Positions 1 to 42,020 of a DNA stretch of 44,111 nt are shown here, piece by piece (the first letter of the stretch is position 1; every line of letters begins with the position of its first letter). Both the position numbers and the translations under genes were made by a program. Source of the DNA: a virus; IMG/VR virus record IMGVR_UViG_3300045988_019654, positions 1-44,111 of that record, one strand, 5' to 3'. The notes beneath the pieces were generated by a model. It searched no databases. It was not told the DNA's origin and saw nothing but the letters and a program-made list of their open reading frames with translations.

Positions 1-99
1 CCAATAAATCAGCTAAAAGAAAAATGGTGACTAAATGGGACTTATAACAACACTAAAAAGGTGGTTTAACATGATATTCAAAAAACAAGCCGAAGAGGA
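1..99. repeat. Terminal direct repeat copy 1, identical to 44013..44111 (circular assembly overlap)
   Basis: The first 99 nt (ccaataaatcagc...gccgaagagga) recur verbatim as the last 99 nt. The repeat cuts through the 3' end of CDS 43713..44042 and the 5' end of the portal gene. Confidence 0.9.
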
Positions 100-1480
100 C
101 TTTAACATCCAGGCGGCAGAGTTCCCAGAAATGGAATCACTGATTAACCGGTGCGCGAACATTTACAGGGGAGTTCCGGAATGGTTGGATGATAAGAATA
201 ACATCAAGACGATTAATTTTGCTAAATCTGTGTGTTCAGAAACAGCCCGGCTCGCAACATTGGCAATCGGCATTCAGATAGATGGTTCCGCAAGGGCTAC
301 GTGGCTACAGGAACAGATTGACAAGGTATATTTCCAGATTCGCCATTGGGTAGAATATGGCTGTGCTTACGGAACGGTATTCATCAAGCCGAACGGTGAG
401 AGCCTTGACATATTTACTCCAGCAGATGTGATGATTGTGGAATACGACAATCAGGAAATCAAAGGGATTATATTTAAGGATTCGTATACTGTTGGACGGA
501 AATACTACACAAGGCTCGAATATCACAGGTTTATTGAGACAACAGTGAACGGCGTAACAGCCTACCCGTACTACGTTTCTAACAGAGCCTATGTATCAAA
601 ATCCCCTCAGTCAATCGGAGACAAGATTGACCTTAAACAGACCAAATGGGCTGACCTAATGGCAGATACGCCACCGATACTCAAGGCAAACGGGGAGAAG
701 CTGGACGGACCGTTGTATGGAGTTCTACGGACGCCACAGGCTAACAACGTGGACATTAGTACACCACTTGGACTTCCAATATTTGCGGAAGCTATAGAAG
801 AATTAAAAGACCTCGATATTGCATACAGCAGAAACGCCGGAGAGATTTTTGATTCACAGAAGATTGTTCTGGCAGATGATAGACTGCTGATGCCAAGCGG
901 TACACCTGTATCAGCCATGTCACCACAGGGTATGGAGAACAGACGTAATGAGATGAACTTACCACACTTTGTCAAGAATGTATTCGGACAGCTCGAGAAA
1001 GAGTTTTACCAAGAAATCAATCCACAGCTCAACACGGATACCCGTATAAGCGGTATAAACGCCCTTTTAAGCCAGTTAGGATACAAGATTGGATTCTCTA
1101 ACGGATACTTTGTTTTCAACGAATCTAGCGGCATACAGACGGCTACAGGAGTGGAAGCGGAACAGCAGAGGACAGTACAGTTCATTAAAGACGTTCGAGA
1201 CAAACTGGAATCTTGTCTGAATGAAGTAATCTACGCATTGAACGTTTACGCTGATCTGTACGGGCTTGCACCCGTCGGAGCTTATGAAGTCAATTATGAT
1301 TTTGGAGACATCCTATATGTGCGTGAAAACGACCGTGCAAGATGGTGGCAGTATGTGACCACTGGCAAAGTTCCGGCATGGATGTACTTCGTGAAGTTCG
1401 AAGGAATGACAGAGGATGAAGCGAAAGCAATGGTCAAAGAAGCTCAACCAGACGAACCGAAATTATTTGGAGAGGAGTAA
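35..1480 (+). CDS. Portal protein (SPP1 gp6-like)
   Basis: 481-aa ORF that follows the terminase large subunit across the circular junction. Size and position fit the terL / portal / gp7-like order of SPP1-type head modules. Confidence 0.8.
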   Translation: MGLITTLKRWFNMIFKKQAEEDFNIQAAEFPEMESLINRCANIYRGVPEWLDDKNNIKTINFAKSVCSETARLATLAIGIQIDGSARATWLQEQIDKVYFQIRHWVEYGCAYGTVFIKPNGESLDIFTPADVMIVEYDNQEIKGIIFKDSYTVGRKYYTRLEYHRFIETTVNGVTAYPYYVSNRAYVSKSPQSIGDKIDLKQTKWADLMADTPPILKANGEKLDGPLYGVLRTPQANNVDISTPLGLPIFAEAIEELKDLDIAYSRNAGEIFDSQKIVLADDRLLMPSGTPVSAMSPQGMENRRNEMNLPHFVKNVFGQLEKEFYQEINPQLNTDTRISGINALLSQLGYKIGFSNGYFVFNESSGIQTATGVEAEQQRTVQFIKDVRDKLESCLNEVIYALNVYADLYGLAPVGAYEVNYDFGDILYVRENDRARWWQYVTTGKVPAWMYFVKFEGMTEDEAKAMVKEAQPDEPKLFGEE

Positions 1481-1484
1481 AAAG

Positions 1485-1739
1485 ATGGCAGATAAACCAG
1501 TAACAAGGGAAGAAAAATATCTTGCGTACTTGACAGGTGATTATACAGGCGAAATTCCAAAGCCGATCACGAGAAAAGAAAAATACTTGTATAAACTCTG
1601 TGTAGACGGAATCGGAACCAGCAAAGAAGCTATAGCAGAAGCAGTCCAGACGTACCTGTCCGACAAGGATGTTGGACTTAACATGGATGCTGATGGCTAT
1701 GTGAGTTTAAAAGCAACGGAGGTAAATAATAATGGCTGA
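1485..1739 (+). CDS. Small protein with a tandem TRxEKYL motif, function unknown
   Basis: ATG at 1485 lies behind GAGAGGAG, whereas the track start at 1416 overlaps the portal gene. The motif TREEKYLAYL...TRKEKYLYKL is repeated about 20 aa apart. The gene overlaps the start of the next gene. Confidence 0.6.
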   Translation: MADKPVTREEKYLAYLTGDYTGEIPKPITRKEKYLYKLCVDGIGTSKEAIAEAVQTYLSDKDVGLNMDADGYVSLKATEVNNNG

Positions 1740-4041
1740 TACATTTAAAGGGATAATTACAGCGGATGGAAAGAAGAGACAGTTGCCTTATGAAAACGTT
1801 CTCAAAACGCCTATTTCCGATGAAACATTGTCTGTACAGGGCGGCTTCGCAGATGCTAAAGTAGCAGGGGATAAATTCAAAGAAATAAAGGCAGAAACTG
1901 ATTCACTAAAGGAAGATTTAGGTGGTTTAAACGAATCTATTTTTACTGTTAAGGGAAAAGAAAATCTTTCGTGGATAATTGGAGCAGTAAATAAAGCCGA
2001 CGGTATTTCTGTATCACATACAAAGCGAATTCGCAGTATTCTTTTTCAAGCGGACGGTGGCATTGTGGATATAAATGGCGATTACCAAATTGCCGTTGCT
2101 GTGTATAGCGGAAATAATTTGAATACATTTGAGAAGTATATTGACTTTTCGACTTTGGCATACCGCTTTGAAAAAGGGAAGTATTATGTAATTGTTATTA
2201 AAGCGAATCCAGAAGTAGATTTTTCTGATTCCGATATCAATGATGTGTTAACTCATATATCAATTAGATTTTGGAACGGAGATACAAAAATTGAATCGGT
2301 TGAAAAGAAGAATGACGACTTGAAAAAAAGTGTCGAGCTTGTTAAAAATGTAGGCTTGAATTCTGATGTTATATTTTCTATAGGTGGATTAAACCCTTCT
2401 GATGGAAGCATAAACGATAATATGGAACGACTTTATAGCAATATCATTTTTGCAAGAAAAGGTTCTTCTATTTGCTTGAAATCAAATAACAAATTGAAGT
2501 TTGCGGTATATAAATATTCTGACAAATTTGGGAACACATTTGTTTCTGCAAATGCGTTATCCCTTGATGATTATGAATTTACGGAAGATACCTATGCTAG
2601 AATTTTAATCGAAAGTGGAAACCAAAATGATTTAGAAAAGTTATCTTTTAACATTTTCCAGTTTGATTTAAAAGAATTGAATGACCGTGTTAAGTATACA
2701 GAACTAACACAATGGACTGATAAAGGATATATCTCAATATCGGCTGTCGGTGAGTACACTAAATTTGTAGTCACACTCACATCAGAATGGTCGTTTATGG
2801 TTTTACCAGTTAGTGAGGGAGATAAATTTATTATATCTGGATTTGGTGGAAACAACAGTAAATTATATGCGTTTACTGATAGATTTGGAAAAGTTTTGGA
2901 ACGAACTGAAAAAAGTAGCATAACTCAAAGCCTTGTAATACAAGCACCGGAAAATGGATATGTGATATTTAATGCTTTGAGAAAAAATGAACATTATGCT
3001 ATTAAATATAACGAAAACAATGATGATGCTATTGAAAATAGAAATCTCATTGTACCACCGTACATGCCAGATATAAACAAAGTGATTACATCAGTTCCAA
3101 ATAATAAAACGAGTGCAATGAGTTATGACGAAATAGTATCAGCGTGGGATTCTTTACAAAAGAAATATCCTAATTACATATCTAAAACGAATCTTGGGAA
3201 AGAAACCTCTGGGTCTTTGGATATGTATAGATATGATTTTGTTCCAGAAATTGTATCACTTGAGGCATCAGTTCAGGATGGGATAAACAAGATATACACC
3301 AAAAATGATTATCCTATTGTAATTATGGGTGCTTGTATTCATGGTGCAGAGCGTCCATGTGCAAAGTCGTTATTGAATCTTATGACTTTGATTGCTAATG
3401 CAAAAGATTATTCGATTTTAGGGTGGTTGAGAAACAATATTCACTTTGTGATTATCCCACTGGAAAATCCTTGGGGTTACAAAAATGATAAACGTACAAA
3501 TGTGAATCAAGTTGACTTAAACCGTAATTTTGAACCATTTTGGGAAAAGGGAGAAAATACAACTGAAAACCAACGGTATCGTGGTACAGCTCCTTTATCC
3601 GAAAAAGAAACACAGTATATTGACTCAGTATTAAAAGAATGTGCGGATAAAGCGGTCTGCTATTATAGTTTTCATACACATGGTGTGTTTACGGCTTATA
3701 ATATGATGACTAATTTTTCCAGTCCAGCATTATATCTGTTAAATGAGATGCAGAATATTGGAATGAGTGTAACCAAAATGATAACGTCATCTGGATGGAT
3801 AAATCACAATCTTCCAGAAGATAGCGGGTATATTGGTTGTATGGAAATGGAATATGGAGCCGCAATGGCTTCGTATCAAGCTGCAAAATACAAAATTCCA
3901 TCCGCTTGTCCAGAAGTGATGTATCGTTATTATGATGGTGGCACTGGTGAGGTTTACAATACAGATTTAGACTGTATGAACACGGAATATATGTTATATT
4001 CAGTTACTAATGCTTGTGCAAAATTTTTGTATGGTAATTAA
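1732..4041 (+). CDS. 769-aa protein with a C-terminal zinc carboxypeptidase (peptidase M14) domain
   Basis: RBS GGAGGT. M14 signatures are visible in order: IHGAERP (HxxE zinc ligands), DLNRNF (substrate-binding NR), SFHTHG (third zinc ligand) and MEMEYG (candidate catalytic Glu). The first ~500 aa have no motif I recognise. Confidence 0.75.
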   Translation: MADTFKGIITADGKKRQLPYENVLKTPISDETLSVQGGFADAKVAGDKFKEIKAETDSLKEDLGGLNESIFTVKGKENLSWIIGAVNKADGISVSHTKRIRSILFQADGGIVDINGDYQIAVAVYSGNNLNTFEKYIDFSTLAYRFEKGKYYVIVIKANPEVDFSDSDINDVLTHISIRFWNGDTKIESVEKKNDDLKKSVELVKNVGLNSDVIFSIGGLNPSDGSINDNMERLYSNIIFARKGSSICLKSNNKLKFAVYKYSDKFGNTFVSANALSLDDYEFTEDTYARILIESGNQNDLEKLSFNIFQFDLKELNDRVKYTELTQWTDKGYISISAVGEYTKFVVTLTSEWSFMVLPVSEGDKFIISGFGGNNSKLYAFTDRFGKVLERTEKSSITQSLVIQAPENGYVIFNALRKNEHYAIKYNENNDDAIENRNLIVPPYMPDINKVITSVPNNKTSAMSYDEIVSAWDSLQKKYPNYISKTNLGKETSGSLDMYRYDFVPEIVSLEASVQDGINKIYTKNDYPIVIMGACIHGAERPCAKSLLNLMTLIANAKDYSILGWLRNNIHFVIIPLENPWGYKNDKRTNVNQVDLNRNFEPFWEKGENTTENQRYRGTAPLSEKETQYIDSVLKECADKAVCYYSFHTHGVFTAYNMMTNFSSPALYLLNEMQNIGMSVTKMITSSGWINHNLPEDSGYIGCMEMEYGAAMASYQAAKYKIPSACPEVMYRYYDGGTGEVYNTDLDCMNTEYMLYSVTNACAKFLYGN

Positions 4042-4372: not shown

Positions 4373-5602
4373 ATACTTAGTCCAGAATATTTGCGAAGAA
4401 TTACAGAGGGCAGTGAACAGATAGCAGAAGAGCTGCACCAGTATATCATCTCTGAGATCGTGTCAAGGATGATGGCAAGAATCGGCAGAGGTGAAGATTA
4501 TATTCTGACCAATGCCGATGCGTGGAGAATCAGAACGCTACAGGAATCGGGTGAGCTGCTAGAGGACATTCTGGCAGAATTATCCAAATACACCAAACGT
4601 GAACAGCAGGAACTTCTTGAAGCGTTTGAAGATGCCGGAATCACTGCAATGAACTATGACGATAAGGTATACAAGGCGGCAGGATTAAGCCCTGTACCAC
4701 TCGAACAATCGCCGGCTATGATAAGACTCATGGAGCGAAATATGCTTGCGACTATGGGAGAGTGGAAGAACTTCACAAGAACGACTGCAAGTGCCGCTCA
4801 AAGGCTCTATATTGAGCAGTGCGACCTTGCGTATAACCATGTAATGACTGGGGCGGTTGGGTATACGCAAGCCATCAAAGAGGCGGTTAATAACGTTGTG
4901 AGTGATGGTGTTACTGTCACATATCCATCTGGCAGAAAAGACACGATTGAAACAGCAGTCGCACGTTCTGTCAGAACTGGCGTGGCTCAGGCTACTGGAG
5001 AGATATCCCTAAAACGCATGGAAGAAATGGACTGGGATTTGATCCTGGTCAGTGCTCACATGGGAGCCAGAACAGGTGACGGCGGTGAGAATCCGGGAAA
5101 CCACTCATGGTGGCAAGGCAAGATATACTCTCGTTCTGGCAAGAGCAAGAAATTTCCACCGTTCTCATTGACCGGATATGGAACGGCAAGTGGACTGTCA
5201 GGGGTCAACTGTCGGCATAGCTTTGGGGCAAGTGACGGGGAATTTAATCCCTATGCAGAACTATCGACACAGGATAAAGCCGGCAAAGGTAAACAGTACG
5301 AAAAGGAACAGCGGCAACGTACTTATGAGCGAAGAATCCGCAAAACGAAGAGAGAGGTTCTTGGACTGCAAGCAGGAGTTGACAATGCACCGAACGAAAA
5401 GGCGAAATTCGCATTACAACAAGACCTTGACCGGAAATCTTATCTTTTACAGAAACAAAATGCTGCATACAAGGCTTACTGCAAGCAGAATGATTTAAGA
5501 GAGCTGCAAGACCGACTTATGATTGCTAAGTGGAGCCGTCAGAACGCCGCAAAAGCCAGAGGAGCGGCAAAACGATATAAGACAGTAAAGGGGATTGACT
5601 GA
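4373..5602 (+). CDS. Minor head / head morphogenesis protein (SPP1 gp7, Mu F-like)
   Basis: Family-typical motifs are present: SPEYLRRITEGSEQIAEELH at the N-terminus and HMGARTGDGG...HSWWQGKIYS...GVNCRHSF. The reading frame opens only at 4367. RBS AAAGAGGTGA (4357..4366) is optimally spaced to an ATA codon at 4373. The nearest canonical start, TTG at 4391, is 24 nt from the RBS. Confidence 0.75.
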   Translation: MLSPEYLRRITEGSEQIAEELHQYIISEIVSRMMARIGRGEDYILTNADAWRIRTLQESGELLEDILAELSKYTKREQQELLEAFEDAGITAMNYDDKVYKAAGLSPVPLEQSPAMIRLMERNMLATMGEWKNFTRTTASAAQRLYIEQCDLAYNHVMTGAVGYTQAIKEAVNNVVSDGVTVTYPSGRKDTIETAVARSVRTGVAQATGEISLKRMEEMDWDLILVSAHMGARTGDGGENPGNHSWWQGKIYSRSGKSKKFPPFSLTGYGTASGLSGVNCRHSFGASDGEFNPYAELSTQDKAGKGKQYEKEQRQRTYERRIRKTKREVLGLQAGVDNAPNEKAKFALQQDLDRKSYLLQKQNAAYKAYCKQNDLRELQDRLMIAKWSRQNAAKARGAAKRYKTVKGID

Positions 5603-5982
5603 TGGACAGATGGGAATATTATAATCCGAATCCTGCCGGTAATCGAGTCGGAGATTGTGCTGTCCGGGCAATATGCAAGGCGACCGGTTTTGACTGGGAA
5701 ACGGTATTCGCTGGATTAATGGTACAGGCATGCGCTCTGTCAGATATGCCATCAGCTAATTACGTTTGGGGAGCGTACCTCTATAAACGTGGGTACAGGC
5801 GCAAACTGATTGAACAATCAGAGCGATATATCTATACAGTCAATGATTTTTGCACAGACCATCCGACAGGTACGTATATCCTCTGCATAGATGGTCATGT
5901 AGTGACAGTACAAGAGGGCAAATATTTCGATACATGGGATAGTGGTAATGAGATCCCGGTATATTACTGGGAAAAGGAGTAG
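5602..5982 (+). CDS. 126-aa putative papain-fold (Cys-His) peptidase-like protein
   Basis: ATGA overlap with the upstream gene. There is a conserved-looking GDCAVRA (candidate nucleophile Cys) and a later IDGHVVTV (candidate His). The assignment rests on motifs only. Confidence 0.4.
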   Translation: MDRWEYYNPNPAGNRVGDCAVRAICKATGFDWETVFAGLMVQACALSDMPSANYVWGAYLYKRGYRRKLIEQSERYIYTVNDFCTDHPTGTYILCIDGHVVTVQEGKYFDTWDSGNEIPVYYWEKE

Positions 5983-5986
5983 CTAA

Positions 5987-6292
5987 ATGAGCATACAGGA
6001 ATTTATTCAGTGTTTTCTTTCAATCTGTGGAGGAGTGTCAATCATTGGAGGGGCAGCAGCTGTTATTTTTAAATGGATTACTCCGGCATTCCGACTCAAC
6101 AAGCGAGTTGAGACACTGGAAGAACATGATAAGCGAGATTACGAGAGTCTTCAGAGGATCGCGGAGCGTGATTCATTGATTCTGGAAGTGCTATCAACCA
6201 TGCTGGATAGTCAGATTAGTGGGAATAATGTGGAAGAGTTAAAAAAAACAAAACAGAAGCTTACAAATTATCTTGCGCAGAATCAGCGTTAG
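5987..6292 (+). CDS. Membrane-anchored coiled-coil protein
   Basis: RBS AAAGGAG. One N-terminal hydrophobic helix (FLSICGGVSIIGGAAAVIF) is followed by a charged helical region. Confidence 0.55.
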   Translation: MSIQEFIQCFLSICGGVSIIGGAAAVIFKWITPAFRLNKRVETLEEHDKRDYESLQRIAERDSLILEVLSTMLDSQISGNNVEELKKTKQKLTNYLAQNQR

Positions 6293-6312
6293 CATTAGTA
6301 AGGGGTATGCTC

Positions 6313-6513
6313 ATGAAATTATATGTGTTCACAAAGAAAGATATAGACAGGTTCTTGATAGAGTGTAATTTCACACCGGACGAAGAAAGATTGTTTCGAC
6401 TGAGATGCAAGGAATATACACTCGAATACTGCGCTGAACAGATGAATGTGAGTATATCCACGGCGAAACGATTAAGCCGGAGGGTGAACAATAAAATAAT
6501 TAAAGTGTGCTGA
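6313..6513 (+). CDS. Small HTH protein (sigma-70 region 4 / LuxR-like)
   Basis: The ATG at 6313 is better spaced from AAGGGG than the one at 6307. The C-terminal part, YTLEYCAEQMNVSISTAKRLSRRV, looks like a helix-turn-helix. Confidence 0.5.
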   Translation: MKLYVFTKKDIDRFLIECNFTPDEERLFRLRCKEYTLEYCAEQMNVSISTAKRLSRRVNNKIIKVC

Positions 6514-6536
6514 TACTTTTTGGATACTAATTAGAG

Positions 6537-6567
6537 CCAGAAACGACCTGTTTCCGGTTCTTTTTTT
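6537..6567 (+). terminator. Rho-independent terminator
   Basis: Stem CCAGAAAC / GTTTCCGG (one mismatch) with a 5-nt loop, followed by TTCTTTTTTT. Confidence 0.65.
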
Positions 6568-6601
6568 ATGTAAAAATATAATCAGAAAGGCGGTGTATAA
6601 G

Positions 6602-7072
6602 ATGGCATTATATAATAATCCTTATCAATATAGCTTTGGCGTCCCTGGGCAAATGAACCAGTTCCAGCAACAGCCTGTCCAGATTCCAGCTCAACCAGTA
6701 CAGCAACCACAGCAGAATAATAGCGGTATCCTGTGGGTATCCGGCGAAGTCGGCGCAAAATCCTATCTGGTAGCACCCGGGACAAGCGTTTTACTGATGG
6801 ATTCAGAATCAGAGAAATTCTTTATAAAATCCACAGATGCTTCTGGTATGCCACAGCCGTTACGGACGTTTGAGTATCATGAAGTAGGTACTCAGATGCC
6901 ACCTAAACAGCTTGTTCAGAATATGGACAGTAAATACGTCACACGACAGGAATATGACGATTTAAAAGGCAAATACGAAGCTATCATAAACCGATTAAAT
7001 TCATTTTCTGAACCTGTTAGGGCTAATACCGTACAGGAATCAGCAAGCAAGGGAGGAAACACAGATGAGTAA
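6602..7072 (+). CDS. Q/P-rich protein with a C-terminal beta-rich domain, function unknown
   Basis: ATG at 6602 follows AGAAAGGCGG. The N-terminus is low-complexity (QFQQQPVQIPAQPVQQPQQ), followed by GILWVSGEVGAKSYLVAPGTSVLLMDSE. Confidence 0.6.
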   Translation: MALYNNPYQYSFGVPGQMNQFQQQPVQIPAQPVQQPQQNNSGILWVSGEVGAKSYLVAPGTSVLLMDSESEKFFIKSTDASGMPQPLRTFEYHEVGTQMPPKQLVQNMDSKYVTRQEYDDLKGKYEAIINRLNSFSEPVRANTVQESASKGGNTDE

Positions 7073-7286
7073 TCCATTATTTAATGTGCTTGGTGGTGGG
7101 ATGCCACAGGGAAACGGACCAATGCAGATGGTACAGCAGTTTATGCAGTTTAAACAGAATTTTAAGGGAGATCCGAAAGCGGAAGTTGAGAAGATGTTAC
7201 AGTCTGGGAAGATTTCCCAACAGCAACTTAATCAGGTTCAGCAGATGGCAGGGCAATTCCAGCACATGTTGAAAGGAATGAAATAA
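7065..7286 (+). CDS. 73-aa Q/M-rich protein, function unknown
   Basis: RBS AGGGAGGA. The gene overlaps the upstream stop codon. Confidence 0.55.
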   Translation: MSNPLFNVLGGGMPQGNGPMQMVQQFMQFKQNFKGDPKAEVEKMLQSGKISQQQLNQVQQMAGQFQHMLKGMK

Positions 7287-7339
7287 TACATTACAATCTG
7301 GCCAGATTGATGTAAATACACAAAAAGGAGATTATAACT

Positions 7340-8119
7340 ATGGATGGAAATTATAGCTTAGCAGATATTGCCGCTGCTACTGGAAACGGTAGAAATAATG
7401 ACGGCATGTTTGGTGGAGATGGTAGCTGGTGGATTATTGTTTTATTCATTTTTGCTTTCTTCGGATGGGGAAACAACGGATGGGGCAATAACGGCAACGG
7501 CGGCGGATATGCAGCCACAGCAGCTACTCAGGCAGACATTCAGAGAGGATTTGACAATTCCGCAGTAATCAGCAAACTTGACGGAATCAACAACGGTCTC
7601 TGTGATGGATTCTATGCGGTGAACAACGGTATGCTTACCGGATTTAATGGAATCAACACCAACATCATGCAGACTGGCTTCGGCATCCAGCAGGCAATCA
7701 ATGCTGACACTGTAGCAAATATGCAGAATACCAATGCACTTCAGGCACAGCTTGCGAACTGTTGCTGCGAAACCAGAGAAGCAATTCAGGGCGTAAACTA
7801 CAATATGGCGCAGAACACCTGTGCATTACAGAACACCATGAACAGCAACACAAGAGATATCATTGACAGCCAGAACGCTGGGACAAGAGCCATTCTTGAT
7901 TATCTTTGCAATGAAAAGATTTCTAACCTTCAGGCTGAAAACAATGACCTCAGACGCGCTGCTTCTCAGGATCGCCAGAGCGCATTGCTCACAACCGCAA
8001 TGGCTTCACAGACACAGCAGCTCATTAATGCGATTAATCCGGCACCGATTCCGGCATATCAGGTTCCTAACCCGAACACATATTACGGATGCGGATGTAA
8101 CGCTGGATGTAATTGCTGA
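7340..8119 (+). CDS. 259-aa single-pass membrane protein, N/G/Q-rich with a Cys-rich C-terminus
   Basis: RBS AAAGGAG. TM segment WWIIVLFIFAFFGW, then a GWGNNGWGNNGNGGG tract, a CCC triplet and the C-terminal YYGCGCNAGCNC. Confidence 0.65.
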   Translation: MDGNYSLADIAAATGNGRNNDGMFGGDGSWWIIVLFIFAFFGWGNNGWGNNGNGGGYAATAATQADIQRGFDNSAVISKLDGINNGLCDGFYAVNNGMLTGFNGINTNIMQTGFGIQQAINADTVANMQNTNALQAQLANCCCETREAIQGVNYNMAQNTCALQNTMNSNTRDIIDSQNAGTRAILDYLCNEKISNLQAENNDLRRAASQDRQSALLTTAMASQTQQLINAINPAPIPAYQVPNPNTYYGCGCNAGCNC

Positions 8120-8183
8120 TAACTTCATATCGAGAGTATCTTTCGATCGATTCGGATGTCGGCTTATGCCGTATTACACAGAG

Positions 8184-8207
8184 GGGCAGGCTGAGACCTG
8201 TCCTTTT
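8184..8207 (+). terminator. Intra-cluster terminator or attenuator
   Basis: Stem GGGCAGG / CCTGTCC (one G.U pair), loop CTGAGA, then TTTTGTG. Confidence 0.5.
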
Positions 8208-8229
8208 GTGATATGAAAGGAGTATTTTT

Positions 8230-8652
8230 ATGGCAGAATTTACAAATGTAGCTGCTCAGACTGTAGCAGCAAATGGAAACGTAGTATTTTCAAACACAGC
8301 AGTTAAAGGTTCTAACTGCATTCAACACAGGGAGGGAAGTGGAATCATTACGCTGAGAGGACTTACTAACCAGTGCAAGGCTAGATTTTTCGTGGACTTC
8401 TCTGGTAATATTGCAATTCCAACAGGTGGTACTGTCGAGGCTATCTCTCTGGCTATTGCAATATCTGGTGAGCCGGTTCTTTCTTCTCAGATGATTTCCA
8501 CACCGGCAGCAGTAGACCAGTACAACAATGTGTCCTCTGGAATCTATATTGATGTACCTCGCGGATGTTGCGTTAATATCGCAGTAGAGAATACAAGCGA
8601 TCAGGCTGTTTCTGTTGCGAACGCAAACATTGTTGTGACCAGAGAAGCATAG
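8230..8652 (+). CDS. 140-aa beta-rich protein with a TNF/C1q-like (BclA C-terminal domain-like) sequence pattern
   Basis: RBS GAAAGGAG. The alternating beta-strand pattern ends in NANIVVTREA, as in C1q/TNF jelly-roll exosporium and fibre tips. The fold assignment is by eye. Confidence 0.55.
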   Translation: MAEFTNVAAQTVAANGNVVFSNTAVKGSNCIQHREGSGIITLRGLTNQCKARFFVDFSGNIAIPTGGTVEAISLAIAISGEPVLSSQMISTPAAVDQYNNVSSGIYIDVPRGCCVNIAVENTSDQAVSVANANIVVTREA

Positions 8653-8663
8653 GAGGTGTGATT

Positions 8664-9218
8664 ATGAGAGACATTAAAGACTTATGCGCAAGAATCGAAG
8701 ACGAGCTTTCCAAGATCGCTGACAATGGACTGACCACTGGAAATCTGGAAATGACATACAAGCTGATTGATATGTACAAAGATATAAAGAACACGCAGTA
8801 CTGGGATAAGAAAGCGGAGTATTACAACGCTGTCCTTGATGAGATGCGCGGCGGATACAATGACGATTACAGCGAACGTGGAAGAAAGCGCGATAGCATG
8901 GGGAGATACAGCTCAAATGATGGCAGAATGATGCCAGATTACGACAGGGGCAGTTCTTATGCCAGACGCGGTGAACATTATGTCAGAGGGCATTACAGTC
9001 GTTCTGACGGACGGGATGCTTATGACGACTATATGACACAGAAACAGAGTTATCGTTCCGGCAAGTCTGAGGACTGCAAGAGAAAGATGCTTGCCGCTCT
9101 GGAGGAACATCTGGACGAACTCACAACAGAAATGAGCGATATGTCCAAGGATGCAGAGTGCCGAGAGGAACGTGATCTTGTCAAGAGATACGTAGAAAAA
9201 CTCCGGGATATGCTCTGA
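8664..9218 (+). CDS. 185-aa protein with helical ends and an R/S/Y/D/G-rich disordered centre
   Basis: RBS AGGAGGTG sits 5 nt before the ATG at 8664. The central low-complexity tract reads SERGRKRDSMGRYSSNDGRMMPDYDRGSSYARRGEHYVRGHYSRSDGRD. Confidence 0.6.
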   Translation: MRDIKDLCARIEDELSKIADNGLTTGNLEMTYKLIDMYKDIKNTQYWDKKAEYYNAVLDEMRGGYNDDYSERGRKRDSMGRYSSNDGRMMPDYDRGSSYARRGEHYVRGHYSRSDGRDAYDDYMTQKQSYRSGKSEDCKRKMLAALEEHLDELTTEMSDMSKDAECREERDLVKRYVEKLRDML

Positions 9219-9265: not shown

Positions 9266-9338
9266 GTAATTGTGCAGCAGGAAGCACAACGGTTGTCTTA
9301 ACATTTTCGTTTTATCCTCCTTTCTTAAAGTAGCTGGT

Positions 9339-9389
9339 ACACACGCTTTAGTGGAAAGTTTTAAACAGGTTCGAATCCTGTCGTGTGTA
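9339..9389 (+). ncRNA. tRNA-like mini-element A (acceptor stem, D-like hairpin and T arm, no anticodon arm)
   Basis: ACACACG (9339..9345) pairs perfectly with CGTGTGT (9382..9388). The T arm is canonical, ACAGG-TTCGAAT-CCTGT (9365..9381). There is a hairpin CTTT-AGTGG-AAAG. Only 6 nt occupy the place where an anticodon arm belongs, giving 51 nt in total. Confidence 0.45.
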
Positions 9390-9538: not shown

Positions 9539-9612
9539 GGGAATGTAGCTCAGGCGGAAGAGCGGAGAGTGTATAGCTCTTGACGTCGCAGGTTCGAATC
9601 CTGCCTTTCCGA
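9539..9612 (+). tRNA. tRNA-like element B: 74-nt cloverleaf with UAU at positions 34-36 but non-canonical features (possible pseudo-tRNA or mimic)
   Basis: TA-GCTC-AGGCGGAA-GAGC D arm; stem GAGAG/CTCTT with loop TGTATAG; T arm GCAGG-TTCGAAT-CCTGC. The acceptor GGGAATG/CTTTCCG has only 5 of 7 pairs. Position 33 is G where U is invariant. The variable loop is 6 nt and no CCA is encoded. Confidence 0.45.
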
Positions 9613-9689: not shown

Positions 9690-10322
9690 ATGCAGAAACT
9701 TATTGACACTTTAAAATCATTTGGAATTGAAATCCCGGAGGATAAACAGGCAGATGTAAAGAAAGCACTTTCTGAGAATTACAAGAACGCAAAGGAAGTA
9801 GCGAAAACTCTGTCAAAAGTTGAGGGAGAACGTGATAACTGGAAAGAACGTGCTGAGACAGCAGAAGAAACCTTAAAAGGTTTTGACGGTATCGACCCGG
9901 CAAATATTAAAAGCGAGTTAGAGACTTGGAAACAGAAAGCAGCAGATGCAGAGAAAGAATTCAATGCAAAAATCTACGACCGTGATTTCTCAGATGCTCT
10001 GAAAGCGGCACTCGATGATGTTAAGTTTTCTAGTGAAGCGGCAAAGAAGTCTGTTATGGCGGACATTAAAGAAGCAGGATTGAAGCTGAAAGACGGTAAA
10101 ATTCTCGGACTGAACGACCTGATTCAGCAGATGAAGCAGTCTGACGCATCCGCTTTTGTGGATGAATCTCAGCAGCAGGCTCAGCAGAATCAGGCAAGAT
10201 TTACCACTCATGTTGGACAGCAGCAGACGCCGGGAAGTATGACCAAAAAAGATATTGAAGCAATCAAAGACCCGTCCGAGAGACAGGCTGCAATTGCTCA
10301 GAATATCCAGTTGTTCCAGTGA
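9690..10322 (+). CDS. Scaffolding protein (Phage_GP20-like)
   Basis: RBS AGGAGGA. A 210-aa acidic, helical, coiled-coil protein lying directly upstream of the major capsid gene. Confidence 0.75.
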   Translation: MQKLIDTLKSFGIEIPEDKQADVKKALSENYKNAKEVAKTLSKVEGERDNWKERAETAEETLKGFDGIDPANIKSELETWKQKAADAEKEFNAKIYDRDFSDALKAALDDVKFSSEAAKKSVMADIKEAGLKLKDGKILGLNDLIQQMKQSDASAFVDESQQQAQQNQARFTTHVGQQQTPGSMTKKDIEAIKDPSERQAAIAQNIQLFQ

Positions 10323-10400: not shown

Positions 10401-11570
10401 ATGGCAGCAAAAGCTAATCTTATTATGACTAATGATATTCAGGTAACGGCACGTGAGATTGACTTCGTAACCAGATTTGAAAGAAACTGGCAGCACTTAC
10501 GTGATATTCTGGGTATCATGAGACCTATCAAAAAACAGCCGGGTGCTGTACTCAAGTCCAAATACGCAGAGGGTACTTTACAGAGTGGAAAAGTAGCAGA
10601 GGGTGAGGAAATCCCTTACAGCAAATTCGTTGTAAAAGAAAAGACCTATGCGGAAATGACTATTGAGAAGTACGCAAAGGCTGTATCTATCGAAGCAATC
10701 AAGGATCACGGTTATGAGAACGCTGTTCAGATGACTGACGATGAATTCCTTTTCCAGCTTCAGACTGATGTTACCGACAGATTTTACGACTATCTGAAAA
10801 CTGGTACACTTACTTCCACAGAAACTACATTCCAGATGGCTCTGGCAATGGCTAAAGGCCGTGTAGAAAACAAATTCAAGCAAATGCACAGAAATGTGAC
10901 TGGCGTTGTTGGATTTGTGAATATTCTTGACGTATATGAATACCTCGGAGCAGCTGAGATCACTATTCAGAACCAGTTCGGATTCCAGTACATGAAGGAC
11001 TTTATGGGATTCAATACAATCTTCTTGCTGTCCGACAGCGAGATTCCGAGAGGACAGGTTATCGCAACTCCTGTTGAGAACATCGTCCTGTACTATGTAG
11101 ATCCGAACGAATCTGACTTCGCAAGAGCAGGACTTGTATACACCGTATCTGGCGAGACAAACCTGATCGGATTCCATACGCAGGGCAACTACCACACCGC
11201 AGTGTCCGAAGCGTTCGCAGTTATGGGGCTTACTCTTTTTGCGGAGTACATTGACGCAATCGCAGTAATCACCATTGATGAGACACCAACCCTTGGCACT
11301 CTGACAGTAAATTCCGTGGCTGGAACAGCAAGCGGTGATACAAAAATCACTGTAAATCCAGCTAAAGAAAATGCCAACAACGTATATAAATACAAAGTTG
11401 CAGCAGGTGCAGTAACTGTTGGATATGGACAGAACCTCAGAAACTGGACTACATGGGACGGAAAAGCTGACATTAAGGCAGCAACCGGACAGAAGATCAC
11501 AGTGGTTGAGTGTGATGGAACATACAAGGCACTGAATTCCGGAAGCGCAAGCGTAACAGCGAAATCATAA
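10401..11570 (+). CDS. Major capsid protein with a C-terminal Ig-like extension
   Basis: 389 aa, positioned after the scaffold gene. The last ~95 aa (TLGTLTVNSVAGTASGDTKITV...ITVVECDG) look like a bacterial Ig-like domain. Confidence 0.8.
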   Translation: MAAKANLIMTNDIQVTAREIDFVTRFERNWQHLRDILGIMRPIKKQPGAVLKSKYAEGTLQSGKVAEGEEIPYSKFVVKEKTYAEMTIEKYAKAVSIEAIKDHGYENAVQMTDDEFLFQLQTDVTDRFYDYLKTGTLTSTETTFQMALAMAKGRVENKFKQMHRNVTGVVGFVNILDVYEYLGAAEITIQNQFGFQYMKDFMGFNTIFLLSDSEIPRGQVIATPVENIVLYYVDPNESDFARAGLVYTVSGETNLIGFHTQGNYHTAVSEAFAVMGLTLFAEYIDAIAVITIDETPTLGTLTVNSVAGTASGDTKITVNPAKENANNVYKYKVAAGAVTVGYGQNLRNWTTWDGKADIKAATGQKITVVECDGTYKALNSGSASVTAKS

Positions 11571-11589: not shown

Positions 11590-12231
11590 ATGGCTTATGC
11601 AGATTATGAATTTTATAAAACTTCATATTTTGGTTCAGTCGTGCCAGAAACCGACTTTCCACGAATGGCAGAAAGAGCCAGTGATTTTGTGGACATGATG
11701 ACGTTTGACAGGCTGGTGGATGGACTGCCGGAAAATGAACGTTCGAAGAAGCGCATCAAAAAGGCGGTCTGTTCATTGATTGAATTAATGTATCAGCTGG
11801 AACTTGCCGAGAAAAATGCAACTTCTTACGCCACCATGAACGGCTCCTCTGTATCGACCAGACCCGGTGAATACGGTTTAGTAACAGATGGTGATGGAAA
11901 CATTCAGCTAGTAAGAGGAGCATCAGCAGAAAACAGCAAGGTAAATGCTCGACTTGTATCAGACGCAAGTGGCAATGTTCAGCTGATAAACAGCAAGGAA
12001 GATTCTGGTGATAAGAACACCGGAATCGTAACTTCTATAAGCTCTGGCAGTGAATCCATCTCTTACGCCACACCACAGCAGATTGGAGCGAGCGCAAAGG
12101 AATGGAGTGCGGTATATGCCACCGCCGGGGATGCGCAGAAAACGAACGACTTACTTCTTAAGACAGCGTTACCGCTTCTGATGGGAGTAAAGACAGATGA
12201 AGGGATACCGATTTTATATGCAGGATTTTAA
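11590..12231 (+). CDS. Head-tail connector / DNA-packaging adaptor with an extended C-terminus
   Basis: The N-terminus AYADYEFYKTSYFGSVVPETDFPRMAERASDFVD is typical of gp15/gp6-like adaptors. The C-terminal half carries the repeat DGDGNIQLV...DASGNVQLI. Confidence 0.6.
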   Translation: MAYADYEFYKTSYFGSVVPETDFPRMAERASDFVDMMTFDRLVDGLPENERSKKRIKKAVCSLIELMYQLELAEKNATSYATMNGSSVSTRPGEYGLVTDGDGNIQLVRGASAENSKVNARLVSDASGNVQLINSKEDSGDKNTGIVTSISSGSESISYATPQQIGASAKEWSAVYATAGDAQKTNDLLLKTALPLLMGVKTDEGIPILYAGF

Positions 12232-12571
12232 GGTTAATATTTTAGGCTCTGAATGGAGCGTGAAATTCGGGAACGAGAAAGAATATCCGAATCTGACAAA
12301 TGTAGATGGCTATACTGATTTATCAATACGGGAAATTGTGGTTGATGATATGGAGGCATCGCAGGGACAGATTGGAGCAAAAGCAGACCTTGAAAGCTAT
12401 CAGAAACAGGTTGTTAGGCACGAAATCATTCATGCATTTTTACTTGAATCTGGACTTGATTCCAATTCAAACAGTGCTGACAGTTGGGCTGTGAATGAAG
12501 AAATGGTTGACTGGTTTGCTATTCAGTCACCGAAGATTTTTAAAGTATTCAATGAACTTAAATTGATGTGA
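12218..12571 (+). CDS. Putative zinc metallopeptidase (HExxH)
   Basis: The ATG at 12218 overlaps the upstream gene. An HEIIH motif sits within VVRHEIIHAFLLESG. Confidence 0.5.
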   Translation: MQDFKVNILGSEWSVKFGNEKEYPNLTNVDGYTDLSIREIVVDDMEASQGQIGAKADLESYQKQVVRHEIIHAFLLESGLDSNSNSADSWAVNEEMVDWFAIQSPKIFKVFNELKLM

Positions 12572-12581
12572 GGTGATAATA

Positions 12582-12851
12582 ATGGATATTTCAACATTAG
12601 GCTCATGCATCGCAATCGTTATGATATGCTACATCGTAGGAATGGGCTGTAAAGCATCAAAAAGAATCTCTGATGAATGGATTCCAGTAATCATGGCGGT
12701 TATTGGTGGGATTCTTGGAGCTGTCGGGATGGGAGTTATCCCGGATTTCCCGGCAACGGACTATATAACAGCAGTTGCGGTCGGTATGTTTAACGGATTG
12801 TCAGCTACTGGTGTGAATCAGGTTATTAAGCAGACAGTGCAGAAAGAATAA
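12582..12851 (+). CDS. Putative holin (Hol44 / phiLC3-like, 2-3 TM segments)
   Basis: RBS GAGGTGA. The protein is 89 aa with hydrophobic segments LGSCIAIVMICYIVGMG, WIPVIMAVIGGILGAVGMGVI and ITAVAVGMFNGLSATG, plus a polar C-terminus. Confidence 0.5.
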   Translation: MDISTLGSCIAIVMICYIVGMGCKASKRISDEWIPVIMAVIGGILGAVGMGVIPDFPATDYITAVAVGMFNGLSATGVNQVIKQTVQKE

Positions 12852-22000: not shown

Positions 22001-22150
22001 CCGGAAGGTGCAATGCTCAACGAATCCGGTCAGGTAGAAGACTGGAACTACAGAACTATGATTCCGGCAATGATGAAATTAATCCAAGACCAGCAAGAAA
22101 CTATTAATAGCCTTAATAAAAGAATAGAAAGATTAGAAAGAGGTGAGTGA
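19028..22150 (+). CDS. Tail-associated / receptor-binding fibre protein with a C-terminal S74 intramolecular chaperone domain
   Basis: 1040 aa. The C-terminus (SSSKRYKKHV...DIPVVWFEYNEG...EDWNYRTMIPAMMKLIQDQQETINSLNKRIERLE) matches the self-cleaving chaperone domain of tail fibres and endosialidases. Confidence 0.75.
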   Translation: MINVSNAFKKKIAEGYPVIEEVDITFPDGTVKTVNKEILNSGNDIVDGVDGSSFPIGQTVCKSLQLFLDNSQEQWKNYYFYGAKLRVKLKMELDDGTTETINKGSFTVTTPEEYGEDVELTALDDMYKANKTYTTSLAFPQDAYVVLRDACQRCGISLGIGSGAMEHATFQIQSVPDGMTFRDVIGCIAMIESANARIDNGGYLQLVKWDFSGVNVDNAPTVDSEGFLKFGGGSVIDSSGYISPVGDWMIDPDGFLYLNEGVNAPQRLRDYLSAPTLSTDNIVITGIQVKSGDTSYQYGSNEYVLQIENTLLQANQLPVVAEWIGASLVGKQFRSMEGDLLYNPLIEFGDMARTYDRKENVYITPITYVASGLNGATTVRTQAESPIRGSSTYNSDALKTLIQAKKLVEAEKNARELAVGKLEEAMKGASGLYETSVLQEDGSTITYLHDKPTLEESKTIIKFTAEAIGVSNDGGKTYPYGFILTGDLITKILYAEGINADYINAGKLLGKFIDAKNLRVSTEDGAVTFYINEKGQVFIQPTAFFLSDNKTLDEAIADKTIEEAQKLTTLNVILSNEYQAIVTDANGNYTTFPECSTTVQVMYGAKNVTNDASYTITEENITGTWDEKNHKYTVAGLSADTGHVNFVVSYKTFSITKQFSIAKQKQGKQGDKGDSATTYVIETDTTVIMRTADGTYVPETVLFKNYVVSGSNKTLRKSNILVQTTTDGSTFSTIKNMNVDDGQYTLYLSTIASDVTAIRYIFRSINLGNPQLATVTIPIINDTELTEKQIFNLLTHNGTRDLLTYVDGKLYLNGTYIKGKTVAADKLNVDDLYAVAASIAQWTIKENYIQSKSGNIRLYSDGRIKIGNAVFSQSEDGDTACNIKYGLHLFCKNITDSSGFIDPSGMFAISGLASNASGSTLILYNNYVYKLSSSSKRYKKHVKNMTSSEAERLLDIPVVWFEYNEGYLAPGDRFEGKPLPGFYAEDVYEAFPEGAMLNESGQVEDWNYRTMIPAMMKLIQDQQETINSLNKRIERLERGE

Positions 22151-22151
22151 A

Positions 22152-23588
22152 TTGGAGGTCAAAGGAATAGACGTCTCTGCTTGGCAGGGACAGATCGACT
22201 GGAAGACAGTGGCAGCCTACGGAATGGACTTTGCCATCCTTCGGATCACAGAAGCCGGAAACGTGATTGACAAACATTTTGAAAGAAATTACACGGAATG
22301 CCAGAAATATAACATCCCAACAGGCGTATATAAGTACTCATACGCAATGACCATCGCAGAGATCCAGAGTGAAGCCAGAAAAATAGTTTCTGTCCTGAAC
22401 GGAAGAAAGTTGCAGTATCCCGTATGGCTGGATCTGGAACACAACAACCAGAGAAGTCTGGGAGCAGAAAACATACATAAGATGGCAGAAGCCTTTGAAA
22501 AGATCATTACAGCAGCGGGATATAAGTTTGGCATCTACTGTAATGTAGACTGGTACATGAACGTGATCTGTAGCCATCTGAAAAAGTATGATTTCTGGAT
22601 CGCACGTTATCCGGCTAACGATGACGGATGGCTTCAGGAACGTCTCCGCCCAGACTTCGGCGTAGGTTGGCAGTACAGCTCAAAAGCCAAGATTCCTGGA
22701 ATCAATGGAACTGTAGACCGGAATGTATTTTACAAAGATTACAAGGATGAAGAAAAGAAAGGGGACGCAGAAATGGCAAAGACAAAAGAACAGATCATTC
22801 AGAATGTGCGAAATGATGCAGTTGAATTTGCGGTAAATATTGCAAATGACAATAATCATGGTTACAGTCAGAGAATCAGAAGTCTGTATGAGATTGATGA
22901 TCCTAAATCATTTGACTGCTCAAGTCTGGCGTGTACAGCATATTACTATGCATTCCTGAAAAATGGACTGACCACGCAGGCAAGATACTTGAAAGAACAT
23001 TGTAGTTATACGGGTAATATGCTGAATATGTGTAACTGCGGTTTTGAGATTGTGGCAAGAAACCAGACTGCACACAGTCAGATGCAGAAAGGTGATCTTG
23101 AACTGAATACATCATATCATGTGGCAATGGCTATAAATAAAGACAATATTGTACATGCCAGAAGTTCAGAAGGAACCACTGATACAAAAGACAACAGTGG
23201 TAATGAGATCAGAACTCAGCCGTGGTATCTGTATAGTCACGGATGGACTCACCGTTTGAGATTTACGGGTAACGGTATTGACTTTACTGTATTGACTGCT
23301 GATACCGACAAACCAGCAGTTAAACCGACAACACCTACAGGGGGTAAATATATGTTTGAACCAGAAACTGTAAAAGCAGGAGACAAAAACACATCCGTAT
23401 TATTGCTTCAGGAGATTTTAAGAGCTAGAGGATTTAAGGGAAAAACCGGAAAAGCCCTGAAACTCACCTGGACCGCAGATACCAACACTATCTACGCCCT
23501 GAAAGCCTACCAGGAATCCAGAAAAAAGGTTCTTGCCGTAGATGGTGTATGTGGTCCTGTGACCTGGAAAGATCTGATCGCGATCTAA
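22152..23588 (+). CDS. Three-domain endolysin: GH25 muramidase, NlpC/P60-like peptidase and a PG_binding_1 domain
   Basis: KGIDVSAWQGQIDW...DRNVF marks GH25. FDCSSLACTAYYYAF ... YHVAMAI..IVHA provides a Cys/His pair. The C-terminal SVLLLQEILRARGF...DGVCGPVTWKDL is a peptidoglycan-binding repeat. The TTG at 22152 is better spaced from the RBS than the GTG at 22143. Confidence 0.85.
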   Translation: MEVKGIDVSAWQGQIDWKTVAAYGMDFAILRITEAGNVIDKHFERNYTECQKYNIPTGVYKYSYAMTIAEIQSEARKIVSVLNGRKLQYPVWLDLEHNNQRSLGAENIHKMAEAFEKIITAAGYKFGIYCNVDWYMNVICSHLKKYDFWIARYPANDDGWLQERLRPDFGVGWQYSSKAKIPGINGTVDRNVFYKDYKDEEKKGDAEMAKTKEQIIQNVRNDAVEFAVNIANDNNHGYSQRIRSLYEIDDPKSFDCSSLACTAYYYAFLKNGLTTQARYLKEHCSYTGNMLNMCNCGFEIVARNQTAHSQMQKGDLELNTSYHVAMAINKDNIVHARSSEGTTDTKDNSGNEIRTQPWYLYSHGWTHRLRFTGNGIDFTVLTADTDKPAVKPTTPTGGKYMFEPETVKAGDKNTSVLLLQEILRARGFKGKTGKALKLTWTADTNTIYALKAYQESRKKVLAVDGVCGPVTWKDLIAI

Positions 23589-25106: not shown

Positions 25107-25835
25107 TTAACGTGAATTTTGTACAAATTTCTCTAGCTGATTTCTGTCCCACAAAAGAACCTGATTTACGGCAGCTAATTCCTGAGCAGATTTTGTAAAA
25201 AATCGGTTTGTCAGAACTGCAGCAACGTGGCAATGATAGAATGTCTTTCCAGCAAACGCCTCCTGTACTGCTTTGTTGCCAATGTCCTTAGAATAGCACT
25301 TACACTGTATTCCGTATTTTACGCCGCCTTTTTCAGCTAAAACATCAATTCCTTGATCTCCGCTACCCTGTGTTACGCTGACATTATAGAAACCATTGTT
25401 TTTAAGCAGGTCTGCACAGTAGTACTCAAAGTCGTGTCCTTCCATTGTGTCATAGACCGGAAGTTGTGGCTCCGGTACCGTGGGCGGATTAGGTATATCT
25501 TCTGATGTCCAATTAGGAGCAGGAGTGTAGTTATCATGGCTGTATGATTGTGGAATAATTGGTTCAACATCGTCAGAGTCAGTAGAATGTGCTCTGATAA
25601 TGCTTGAAAAAGTGCCGAATATAGTAGAAATAATGGCACACGCAACAGCTATTAGTATAGCACCGGGCACAAACATGACTATTCCCGCAAAGATTCCTGA
25701 ACCTATTTCAACAGCATCCCGAGTGCTGCTATTTGCCAAACCAGTTACAGTAATAAATGTCATAAATACAAGCCATAGGAATGTAAGAAATGCTGCAAGC
25801 TTGTGTTTTTTATAAAAATTAAGTACGTGCTTCAT
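25107..25835 (-). CDS. Membrane-anchored restriction-endonuclease-like protein (N-terminal TM helices plus an Mrr_cat PD-(D/E)xK domain)
   Basis: Two or three hydrophobic helices lie in aa 13-80, then a P-rich linker. The C-terminal region GHDFEYYCADLL...GDQGIDVLAEKGG.KYGIQCKCYS...VQEAF fits the Mrr catalytic-domain pattern (D ... QxK). Confidence 0.7.
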   Translation of the reverse strand: MKHVLNFYKKHKLAAFLTFLWLVFMTFITVTGLANSSTRDAVEIGSGIFAGIVMFVPGAILIAVACAIISTIFGTFSSIIRAHSTDSDDVEPIIPQSYSHDNYTPAPNWTSEDIPNPPTVPEPQLPVYDTMEGHDFEYYCADLLKNNGFYNVSVTQGSGDQGIDVLAEKGGVKYGIQCKCYSKDIGNKAVQEAFAGKTFYHCHVAAVLTNRFFTKSAQELAAVNQVLLWDRNQLEKFVQNSR

Positions 25836-41907: not shown

Positions 41908-42020
41908 AATTGATAAAAACTAAAAGTGGTGTAGAGGTACATAGCCCCTAGTGTGGTATTATAGTGTATATAACTATAGCTATGCTAGGGGATTTTATGT
42001 CTGGAGGTGAGAACGTGGGA

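Follow-up and report, generated by a model that had tools for sequence, protein, structure and literature searches.

The closest described counterparts of one product of the gene cluster studied here are the C-terminal domain of BclA (BclA-CTD) and ExsFA/BxpB, exosporium proteins of Bacillus built as ten-strand jelly rolls. We analyzed a window of 44,111 nucleotides (IMG/VR virus record IMGVR_UViG_3300045988_019654, positions 1 to 44,111), a complete temperate siphophage genome in which an earlier note had singled out five consecutive genes, here called g1 to g5, within the head module. The g4 product shares the ten-strand jelly roll (template modeling [TM] scores of 0.75 to 0.77; Foldseek E values of 3e-7 to 2e-5) and, like ExsFA, stands alone at about 140 amino acids (aa). 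It differs from BclA and ExsFA in sequence (11 to 16% identity), in being phage encoded, and in always lying beside a membrane protein, also where no spores form. Unlike BclA, it has neither a collagen-like GXX stalk nor an exosporium leader.

As a genetic unit, the cluster resembles phage morons: it is dispensable and mobile, occupies classic slots, is bounded by a very probable terminator, is oriented with late genes, and has a small probable regulator of its own. Morons usually comprise one or two genes, however, whereas the cassette described here has six to eight that are co-inherited in a fixed order, also in virulent-looking, crAss-like, and predicted archaeal viruses. Its membrane protein, g3, has features in common with two generally known groups of proteins. 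Superinfection-exclusion proteins, such as lactococcal Sie2009 and streptococcal Ltp, likewise combine a single-segment membrane anchor with a helical domain and are accessory, often near the integrase; they are single prophage genes, whereas the cassette has four to seven obligate partners without a transmembrane- or signal-like segment, and no sequence relationship was detected. The i-spanins (Rz/LysB type) share with g3 an N-terminal transmembrane segment, a helical domain with conserved Cys and, in crAss-like phages, adjacency to a holin; in contrast to them, g3 matches no such family, has no lipoprotein partner, and is also encoded where no outer membrane is available for fusion, in phages of Gram-positive hosts and in predicted viruses of archaea. 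The clostridial loci UviA/UviB-bcn and TcdR/TcdE, which pair a sigma factor with holin-dependent export, are alike in layout only (a small sigma-like regulator, a transmembrane protein of holin build, as in g0b and h66 below, and signal-less cargo), and no homology to the cassette was shown. We found no description of the cassette in the literature. It is new as a system, with a known fold in g4, and its function may prove to be a variant of exclusion or of lysis control.

The central observation is one of linkage. Families were mapped by jackhmmer over 10 annotated phage loci and 80 loci drawn from one genome per GTDB species, and linkage was counted over 88 loci of clostridial, lachnospiral, and bacillus-class phages and prophages, a locus being scorable when its flank was long enough. 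The recurrent order was g0c, optional g0a, g1, g2, g3, optional h66, g4 or g4alt, g5, and optional y108. Here g4alt is an unrelated beta protein with a Cys-rich N terminus that occupies the g4 slot, and h66, found, like g0b, in few loci, is a 66- to 80-aa protein that combines a hydrophobic segment at its N terminus with a coiled coil. Gene g1 was the upstream neighbor of g3 in each of the 73 loci scorable for it, and a g2-like open reading frame (ORF) of 55 to 110 aa with more than 25% Q+M+N stood between them in 77 of 80. Either g4 (50 loci) or g4alt (26 loci) was present in 76 of 76, and g5 followed g4 in 59 of 71. A g0c homologue was located no more than 3.5 kb upstream of g3 in 55 of 64 loci; g0a was upstream of g3 in 36 of 64 and downstream in 10 of 71, in some loci at the cassette end. 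Linkage in a fixed-order cassette is essentially obligatory, and in this synteny check, which had been set beforehand, the genes co-localized across the 88 loci, as expected of genes that move together. The five genes of the earlier note stand, but the extent it gave does not: the cassette has six to eight genes and begins upstream of g1, at 5602 (g0a) or 6307 (g0c), with a papain-like protein and a probable regulator (Table 1).

Table 1. Positions of the cassette genes, hairpins, and other features in the 44,111-nucleotide window
Feature	Position	Strand	Description
g0a	5602-5982	+	126 aa; papain-like Cys-His-Asp protein by residue layout (phrog_3754); in most cassette loci
g0b	5987-6292	+	101 aa; N-terminal hydrophobic segment and coiled-coil tail; holin-like architecture
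g0c	6307-6513	+	68 aa; helix-turn-helix protein resembling sigma-70 region 4
Hairpin before g1	6534-6567	+	11-bp stem, T7 run
g1	6602-7072	+	156 aa
g2	7065-7286	+	73 aa; start overlaps the end of g1
g3	7340-8119	+	259 aa; single-pass membrane protein; hallmark gene of the cassette
Hairpin in g3-g4 spacer	8184-8207	+	GGGCAGG/CCTGTCC, then TTTT
g4	8230-8652	+	140 aa; predicted stand-alone C1q/TNF jelly roll, BclA-CTD/ExsFA type
g5	8664-9218	+	R/G/Y/D/S-rich disordered core between helical hairpins
tRNA-Ile(TAT)	9539-9612	+	ARAGORN; Rfam 38.4 bits; downstream boundary, outside the cassette
Portal	35-1480		
Peptidase_M14-domain protein	1732-4041		769 aa
Minor capsid protein 2	4391-5602		SPP1-gp7-like (PF06152)
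Scaffold	9690-10322		PF06810
Major capsid protein (MCP)	10401-11570		
Endolysin	22143-23588		GH25/NlpC-P60/PG_binding
Terminase, small and large subunits	41964-43713		

All five ORFs of the earlier note proved real, on the plus strand and with the coordinates and compositions it had given. The start of g1 is the ATG at 6602, which is preceded by a ribosome-binding site; a GTG upstream at 6593 is less likely. For g5, the ATG at 8664 is preferred over the GTG at 8658 because the homologues begin MRDIK. Each of the five matches a PHROG family of unknown function with E values of 1e-26 to 1e-64 (g1, phrog_21718, 6e-39; g2, phrog_22984, 8e-26; g3, phrog_16490, 2e-58; g5, phrog_28802, 4e-64), and searches of Pfam and NCBIfam with g1 to g5 gave nothing past an E value of 0.05. 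Distant loci gave saturated ratios of nonsynonymous to synonymous substitution rates (dN/dS), and close relatives were taken in their place (46 to 80 related contigs, about 90% DNA identity, dS of 0.36 to 0.58). The ratios were 0.081 for g1, 0.039 for g2, 0.020 for g3, 0.031 for g4, and 0.025 for g5, indicating strong purifying selection; we rate them as low as or lower than those of the MCP (0.062) and the scaffold (0.048). These are therefore functional genes and not chance ORFs.

The cassette is not confined to the head module. Only 19 of the 88 loci were flanked by head genes of the window type, and five kinds of genomic context were observed. At least 14 loci had an endolysin gene 1.3 to 4.5 kb upstream, and at least 10 had an integrase gene 1.2 to 1.8 kb downstream. 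At one locus (L171), the cassette genes were the final phage genes before host DNA; in virulent-looking phages (L173 to L175), the cassette came after the tail genes and before replication genes, including one for DNA polymerase III alpha; and in Clostridium perfringens phages it stood among antirepressor, Gam, and Erf genes. Phages of the same MCP lineage carry it at different places (Dulem 33, Ceridwen, and MT835551). Dorea phage DO134P1 (MCP 53% identical) and Flavonifractor phage Chenonceau (59%) have small genes only between the minor head protein and the scaffold, which bears out the earlier claim that the cluster is an insertion in the head module. Judged by the 88 loci and the comparison of MCP lineages, the cassette is not co-inherited with a particular capsid lineage or head-module position.

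Its dispensability was evident from the C. perfringens phages. A g1-g2-g3-g4alt-h66 block is present in phages XP41-N3, CPQ4, CPD1, 17DYC, HMD-PC1, and PMQ04 and absent from phiCP39-O, 26F, 9O, 13O, and 34O, in which the downstream flank is 97% identical; the upstream antirepressor gene is found in both groups. Because such near-identical phages, which differ in nothing but the cassette, exist without the block, the cassette is unneeded for infectious particles. A 132-aa and a 175-aa protein, the latter deposited as 'contains ferritin domain', are encoded after the C. perfringens cassette (L002 7237-8155; L186 4536-5292); they persist in the cassette-free relatives and mark the right edge of the insertion-deletion.

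These contexts bear directly on the idea that the products are accessory virion proteins. On that account, a TNF-like g4 trimer and the beta-plus-coiled-coil protein g1 would serve as capsid decoration or as head or neck fibers, and g3 and g5 would be packaged and ejected, with the hydrophobic segment of g3 entering the next host's membrane. We consider this possible but unlikely. The head-module position, seen here and in 19 of 88 loci, would fit, but the position among early and recombination genes in C. perfringens phages does not. Co-orientation with late genes is as expected of structural genes, yet the cassette has its own probable helix-turn-helix regulator and terminator. Its presence in virulent-looking phages and the deposition of crAss-like g3 homologues as 'spike' or 'viral fiber' speak for a virion component; the plaque-forming relatives that lack it, with a flank about 97% identical, speak against one. 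Jelly rolls of the same fold end phage and giant-virus fibers, and the absence of export signals fits cytoplasmic assembly; against this, the cassette shows no coupling to capsid lineage or morphotype, and low-complexity regions such as those of g1, g2, and g5 are generally unusual in structural proteins. No virion proteome of a cassette-carrying phage was found in the literature.

The g3 family extends well beyond the phages in which linkage was counted. Many crAss-like phages (Steigviridae and Suoliviridae) encode members, as do Bacteroides phage C3_41T2LP and two viruses that have been assigned to Methanomassiliicoccales. Upstream of the g3-like gene in crAss-like phages are holin and LysB-like genes and the gene for a 200- to 247-aa protein with a g5-like R/G/Y/D/E tail; downstream are genes for an approximately 140-aa beta protein and an approximately 170-aa beta-plus-coiled-coil protein. 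Homology of these neighbors to g4alt or g1 is weak at best. The alignment of g4alt with the crAss 'crB' protein (hhalign P of 0.003 over 88 columns) is suggestive only. Equating g1 with the beta-plus-coiled-coil protein was rejected, as the coiled coil alone aligns.

Two further observations were made on the crAss-like loci. In cr52_1, cr53_1, and cr109_1 (L178, L180, and L182) and in vir215 (L176), a diversity-generating retroelement, consisting of a reverse transcriptase and an Mtd-like tail protein, precedes the g3-like gene by a few genes; in vir335 (L183), the same kind of tail protein adjoins the g3-like gene, but the stretch read has no annotated reverse transcriptase. This closeness is probably a coincidence of position where the tail module ends. 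Several ORFs of L178 and L181 contain in-frame stops under translation table 11, consistent with stop-codon reassignment.

The crAss-like arrangement also raises the question of lysis. The cassette could be a lysis module in which g3 works with the holin as an antiholin or spanin-like disruptor, while the cytoplasmic partners tune lysis timing or, once released through holin lesions, act on envelope or debris. In crAss-like phages, the g3-like gene comes directly after holin and LysB/FtsL-like genes and near the endolysin gene, and an endolysin gene is immediately upstream in at least 14 Firmicutes loci. This adjacency is ambiguous, because the slot after the lysis genes is a generic moron slot too. 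The general i-spanin layout of g3 (N-terminal transmembrane segment plus helical domain with conserved Cys) and the holin-like build of g0b and h66 are suggestive, but g1 to g5, g0a, and g0b match no holin, spanin, or endolysin family in Pfam or NCBIfam, and it is not obvious what a spanin would do in a Gram-positive or archaeal host. Being papain-like, g0a might act as a wall peptidase; the window phage, however, already encodes a complete endolysin and a Hol44 holin at other positions, and C. perfringens phages can do without the cassette. A lysis function is, on balance, distinctly unlikely.

The hallmark protein g3 contains one hydrophobic segment, WWIIVLFIFAFF, followed by GWGNNGWGNNGNGGG, and proceeds through a G/N/W-rich linker, an N/Q/A-rich helical region with a CCC triplet, and a PxPIPAY motif to a Cys-rich C terminus ending in YYGCGCNAGCNC. 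Asn makes up 15% of its residues, and there are 10 Cys, with CCC at residues 141 to 143; the description of g3 as a single-pass membrane protein with a CCC triplet holds. The triplet was present in 88 of 88 family members, and at least two Cys fell among the last 12 residues in 84 of 88. At an E value of 1e-3 or lower, the family formed 2129 clusters at 50% identity. Its best 150 members are mostly 220 to 300 residues long, the longest having 399, and there are no large fusions among them. Relatives were found in 235 species genomes and in at least 564 IMG/VR stretches. The closest cellular copy (80% identity) is on a 486-kb contig of Lachnospira intestinalis. In the IMG/VR scan, the best 80 loci were all 98 to 100% identical in protein and, being near-identical copies, added no diversity; the window phage appears to be abundant in human gut metagenomes. 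Sequence and profile searches of the PDB with g3 and g4 gave nothing meaningful, the best match for g4 being 5e3e_B at an E value of 0.017.

For g4, an AlphaFold2 model built from an alignment of 67 homologues had a mean predicted local distance difference test score (pLDDT) of 93.4 and a predicted TM score of 0.86. Foldseek returned 101 PDB matches at an E value of 1e-3 or lower, led by 9h38, 1rj7, 1wck, 7r1m, and 8d02, with TM scores of 0.67 to 0.77. The top match was F-BclA (9h38; E value of 3e-7, TM score of 0.75), alongside BclA (1wck); ExsFA/BxpB (7r1m, 8d02, and 9h3d) scored 0.75 to 0.77, and EDA, C1q, and 4-1BBL came next. The Pfam family BclA_C (PF18573) was reached by 5 of 19 diverse g4-family members (best E value of 1.6e-5), the window g4 being without a match. 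On this model we are confident that g4 is a C1q/TNF jelly roll of the BclA-CTD/ExsFA type, as the earlier note had proposed from its strand pattern. Stand-alone homologues of about 135 to 143 aa were found in BFVD in uncultured phages named Siphoviridae, Myoviridae, and Podoviridae. Homology of g4 to g4alt was not shown (hhalign P of 0.099).

The fold invites an explanation in terms of spores, in which phage BclA/ExsFA-like, Cys-rich, and CotC/CotG-like proteins would join or remodel the spore coat of the host. The closest structures to g4 are Bacillus exosporium proteins, g3, g4, and g4alt all have conserved Cys, and the R/Y/D/S-rich core of g5 recalls the general composition of CotC/CotG. 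Most loci come from clostridial and lachnospiral genomes, and many such hosts form spores. The g3 family and cassette-like neighborhoods, however, also occur in phages of Butyrivibrio, in Bacteroides and crAss-like phages, and in the predicted Methanomassiliicoccales viruses, none of whose hosts sporulates, and this reach into crAss-like phages and methanogen viruses makes a function linked to spores or a single wall type unlikely. The jelly roll of g4 begins at residue 2, leaving no exosporium-targeting leader or collagen stalk. Pfam scans of g1 to g5, the g0 proteins, ten accessory proteins, and members of the g3, g4, and g0a families revealed no partner of the ExsY/CotY/CotZ type and no collagen-like one. 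The likeness to spore-coat or exosporium proteins drawn in the earlier note comes down to one fold and to composition, and we regard a spore-surface role as very improbable.

The remaining core proteins are of low complexity. In g1, a Y/P/Q-rich N terminus with a PDxLxQL motif (12 Q and 6 P in residues 1 to 45) is followed by an approximately 55-aa beta domain, a C-terminal helix, and a tail rich in K and E. Searches of the PDB and Pfam yielded no relative of g1 or its beta domain, a PDB hit of the latter to a lectin (E value of 0.007) not being regarded as meaningful, and g1 has no export signal. g2 is a Q/M-rich helical protein (21% Q, 12% M); the proposal that it corresponds to an N-terminal extension of crAss-like and archaeal g3, as a domain fusion, was rejected (hhalign P of 0.2). 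g5 consists of a helical hairpin, a disordered core with conserved (R/K)RDSxGRYS and SYxRRG motifs, and a second helical hairpin; of the 73 core residues (63 to 135), 13 are R and 10 each are G, Y, D, and S. Condensate formation, raised in the earlier note, is a compositional suggestion only. No relation was found between g5 and y108. A hydropathy scan detected no transmembrane- or signal-like hydrophobic segment in the families of g1, g2, g5, g4alt, g0a, and y108; 7 of 55 g4 ORFs exceeded the cut-off, which we ascribe to internal strands or over-long ORF calls.

Upstream of g1, the g0a family keeps D18, C19, R22, H99, and D110 invariant in 24 diverse members. In the AlphaFold2 model (pLDDT of 94.1), the Cys is at the N terminus of a helix and the His and Asp are on beta strands, so that the predicted topology agrees, by residue layout, with a papain-like cysteine peptidase or transglutaminase fold. 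Foldseek gave nothing significant for g0a (best match, Josephin-2; E value of 0.21, TM score of 0.44), and there was no Pfam or PDB sequence match. The hydrophobic segment of g0b has a maximum 19-residue Kyte-Doolittle hydropathy of 2.13 (residues 10 to 28); g0b has no Pfam match and is only loosely tied to the cassette, being found by jackhmmer in 6 loci. g0c fell below the cut-offs of Sigma70_r4 (PF04545; E value of 0.007, 16.3 bits against 24.1) and TIGR02937 (E value of 9e-5, 22.1 bits against 42.9) and matched phrog_1190, a sigma factor family, at an E value of 1.8e-6. The equivalent genes on independent contigs show weak Sigma70_r4 or GerE marks. g0c is probably the regulator of the cassette.

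Both hairpins of the earlier note, the terminator before the cluster and the internal one, are present, the former being read here as 6534 to 6567. A second allele of it, GGGTCTTAGAC...GTCTAAGGCTC, retains the T run and keeps the 11-bp stem by compensatory double substitutions, and for this reason it is very probably a real intrinsic terminator. The hairpin at 8184 to 8207 may be an internal terminator or attenuator, judging by its stem and T run. It is part of the 110-nucleotide g3-g4 spacer (8120 to 8229), which is nearly invariant in about 80 relatives with a coding dS of about 0.4 and may hold regulatory RNA structure beyond this hairpin; the spacer has no Rfam match. A simple terminator scanner listed neither hairpin.

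Taken together, we tentatively favor a reading of the cassette as an autonomous accessory operon of the moron type in phages of gut anaerobes, whose products may work jointly at the membrane of the infected cell or the lysogen. This reading agrees best with the linkage, mobility, and dispensability of the genes, the membrane anchor, the jelly roll, the lack of export signals, and the regulator and terminator. In the window phage, the mobile operon would have come to occupy a variable position in the head module. Its products would assemble in the infected or lysogenic cell and not on the capsid, in a complex for which g3 is the membrane anchor. The jelly roll of g4, a putative trimer, would provide a folded binding or capping module, with g1, g2, and g5 as low-complexity adaptors; g0a would process or cross-link one or more cassette proteins, and g0c and the flanking terminator would set expression. 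The pay-off would be a moron-type benefit at the envelope, most plausibly that rival phages are excluded or that lysis and release are controlled.

This moron-type reading is weakest in the biological role that it assigns, and several findings count against it. PADLOC models of anti-phage defence gave no match at an E value of 1 or lower. TNF-like jelly rolls often form the tips of virion fibers, and 22% of the loci are in head modules, with the cassette genes co-oriented with late genes. A role in lysogenic conversion cannot apply in some carriers, because these phages look virulent. The K+R counts of g3 are 0.49 before and 0.40 after the hydrophobic segment, so that the positive-inside rule gives no topology, and no convincing promoter was found for the cassette.

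A more far-reaching version of membrane assembly can be imagined, which we hold to be rather improbable. Here the cassette would make a new kind of virus-encoded, membrane-anchored, self-assembling layer, 'exosporium-like' in character, with g3 as the Cys-rich anchor, g4 as a capping trimer, g1, g2, and g5 as adaptors, and g0a as a papain/transglutaminase-like cross-linker. Viruses of gut Firmicutes, Bacteroidota, and methanogenic archaea would use it to remodel the envelope whatever the wall type.

The rest of the window contains tail genes, a primase, and a C5 methylase, and on the minus strand an integrase, an Mrr-type nuclease, and a repressor. The gene for the 769-aa protein separates those of the portal and the minor capsid protein, an unusual place for it; the protein has a zinc carboxypeptidase domain (Peptidase_M14; E value of 7e-15, residues 469 to 662). 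A Hol44-type holin (PF16079; E value of 1.7e-23) is encoded at 12573 to 12851, within the group of head-tail connector genes and some 10 kb away from the endolysin; the lysis genes of this phage are dispersed inside the structural operon. The argument of the earlier note that a membrane protein is unexpected among head genes is weak here, because the window phage also keeps this holin in the structural operon. The Mrr-type restriction endonuclease (PF04471; E value of 3e-27; 25107 to 25835, minus strand) adjoins the integrase and is likely a defence moron of the prophage. A 124-aa HExxH protein without a Pfam match is encoded at 12197 to 12571, downstream of the connector genes; the cassette itself has small HExxH proteins at its flanks in Dulem virus 39 (L008 9213-9530) and cr116_1 (L004 4414-4761 and 6994-7389). 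Before the tRNA-Ile, positions 9335 to 9388 contain a degenerate tRNA-like remnant; its acceptor halves are TACACACG/CGTGTGTA and its T-arm is CAGGTTCGAATCCTG, and neither ARAGORN nor Rfam calls it.

The cassette moves as a block between thousands of gut phages, spanning phage morphotypes and host phyla, and its g3 gene defines a very large family without an assigned function. A multigene module that is strongly conserved and obligately linked yet dispensable probably makes an important contribution to fitness in the gut. Among phages, its parts are unusual, namely, an exosporium-type jelly roll, a membrane protein with an invariant CCC, and FUS-like low-complexity proteins, and they offer experimental handles. 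With C. perfringens phage pairs that do and do not carry the cassette, and with the cultivable Butyrivibrio phage Ceridwen, its role is directly testable.

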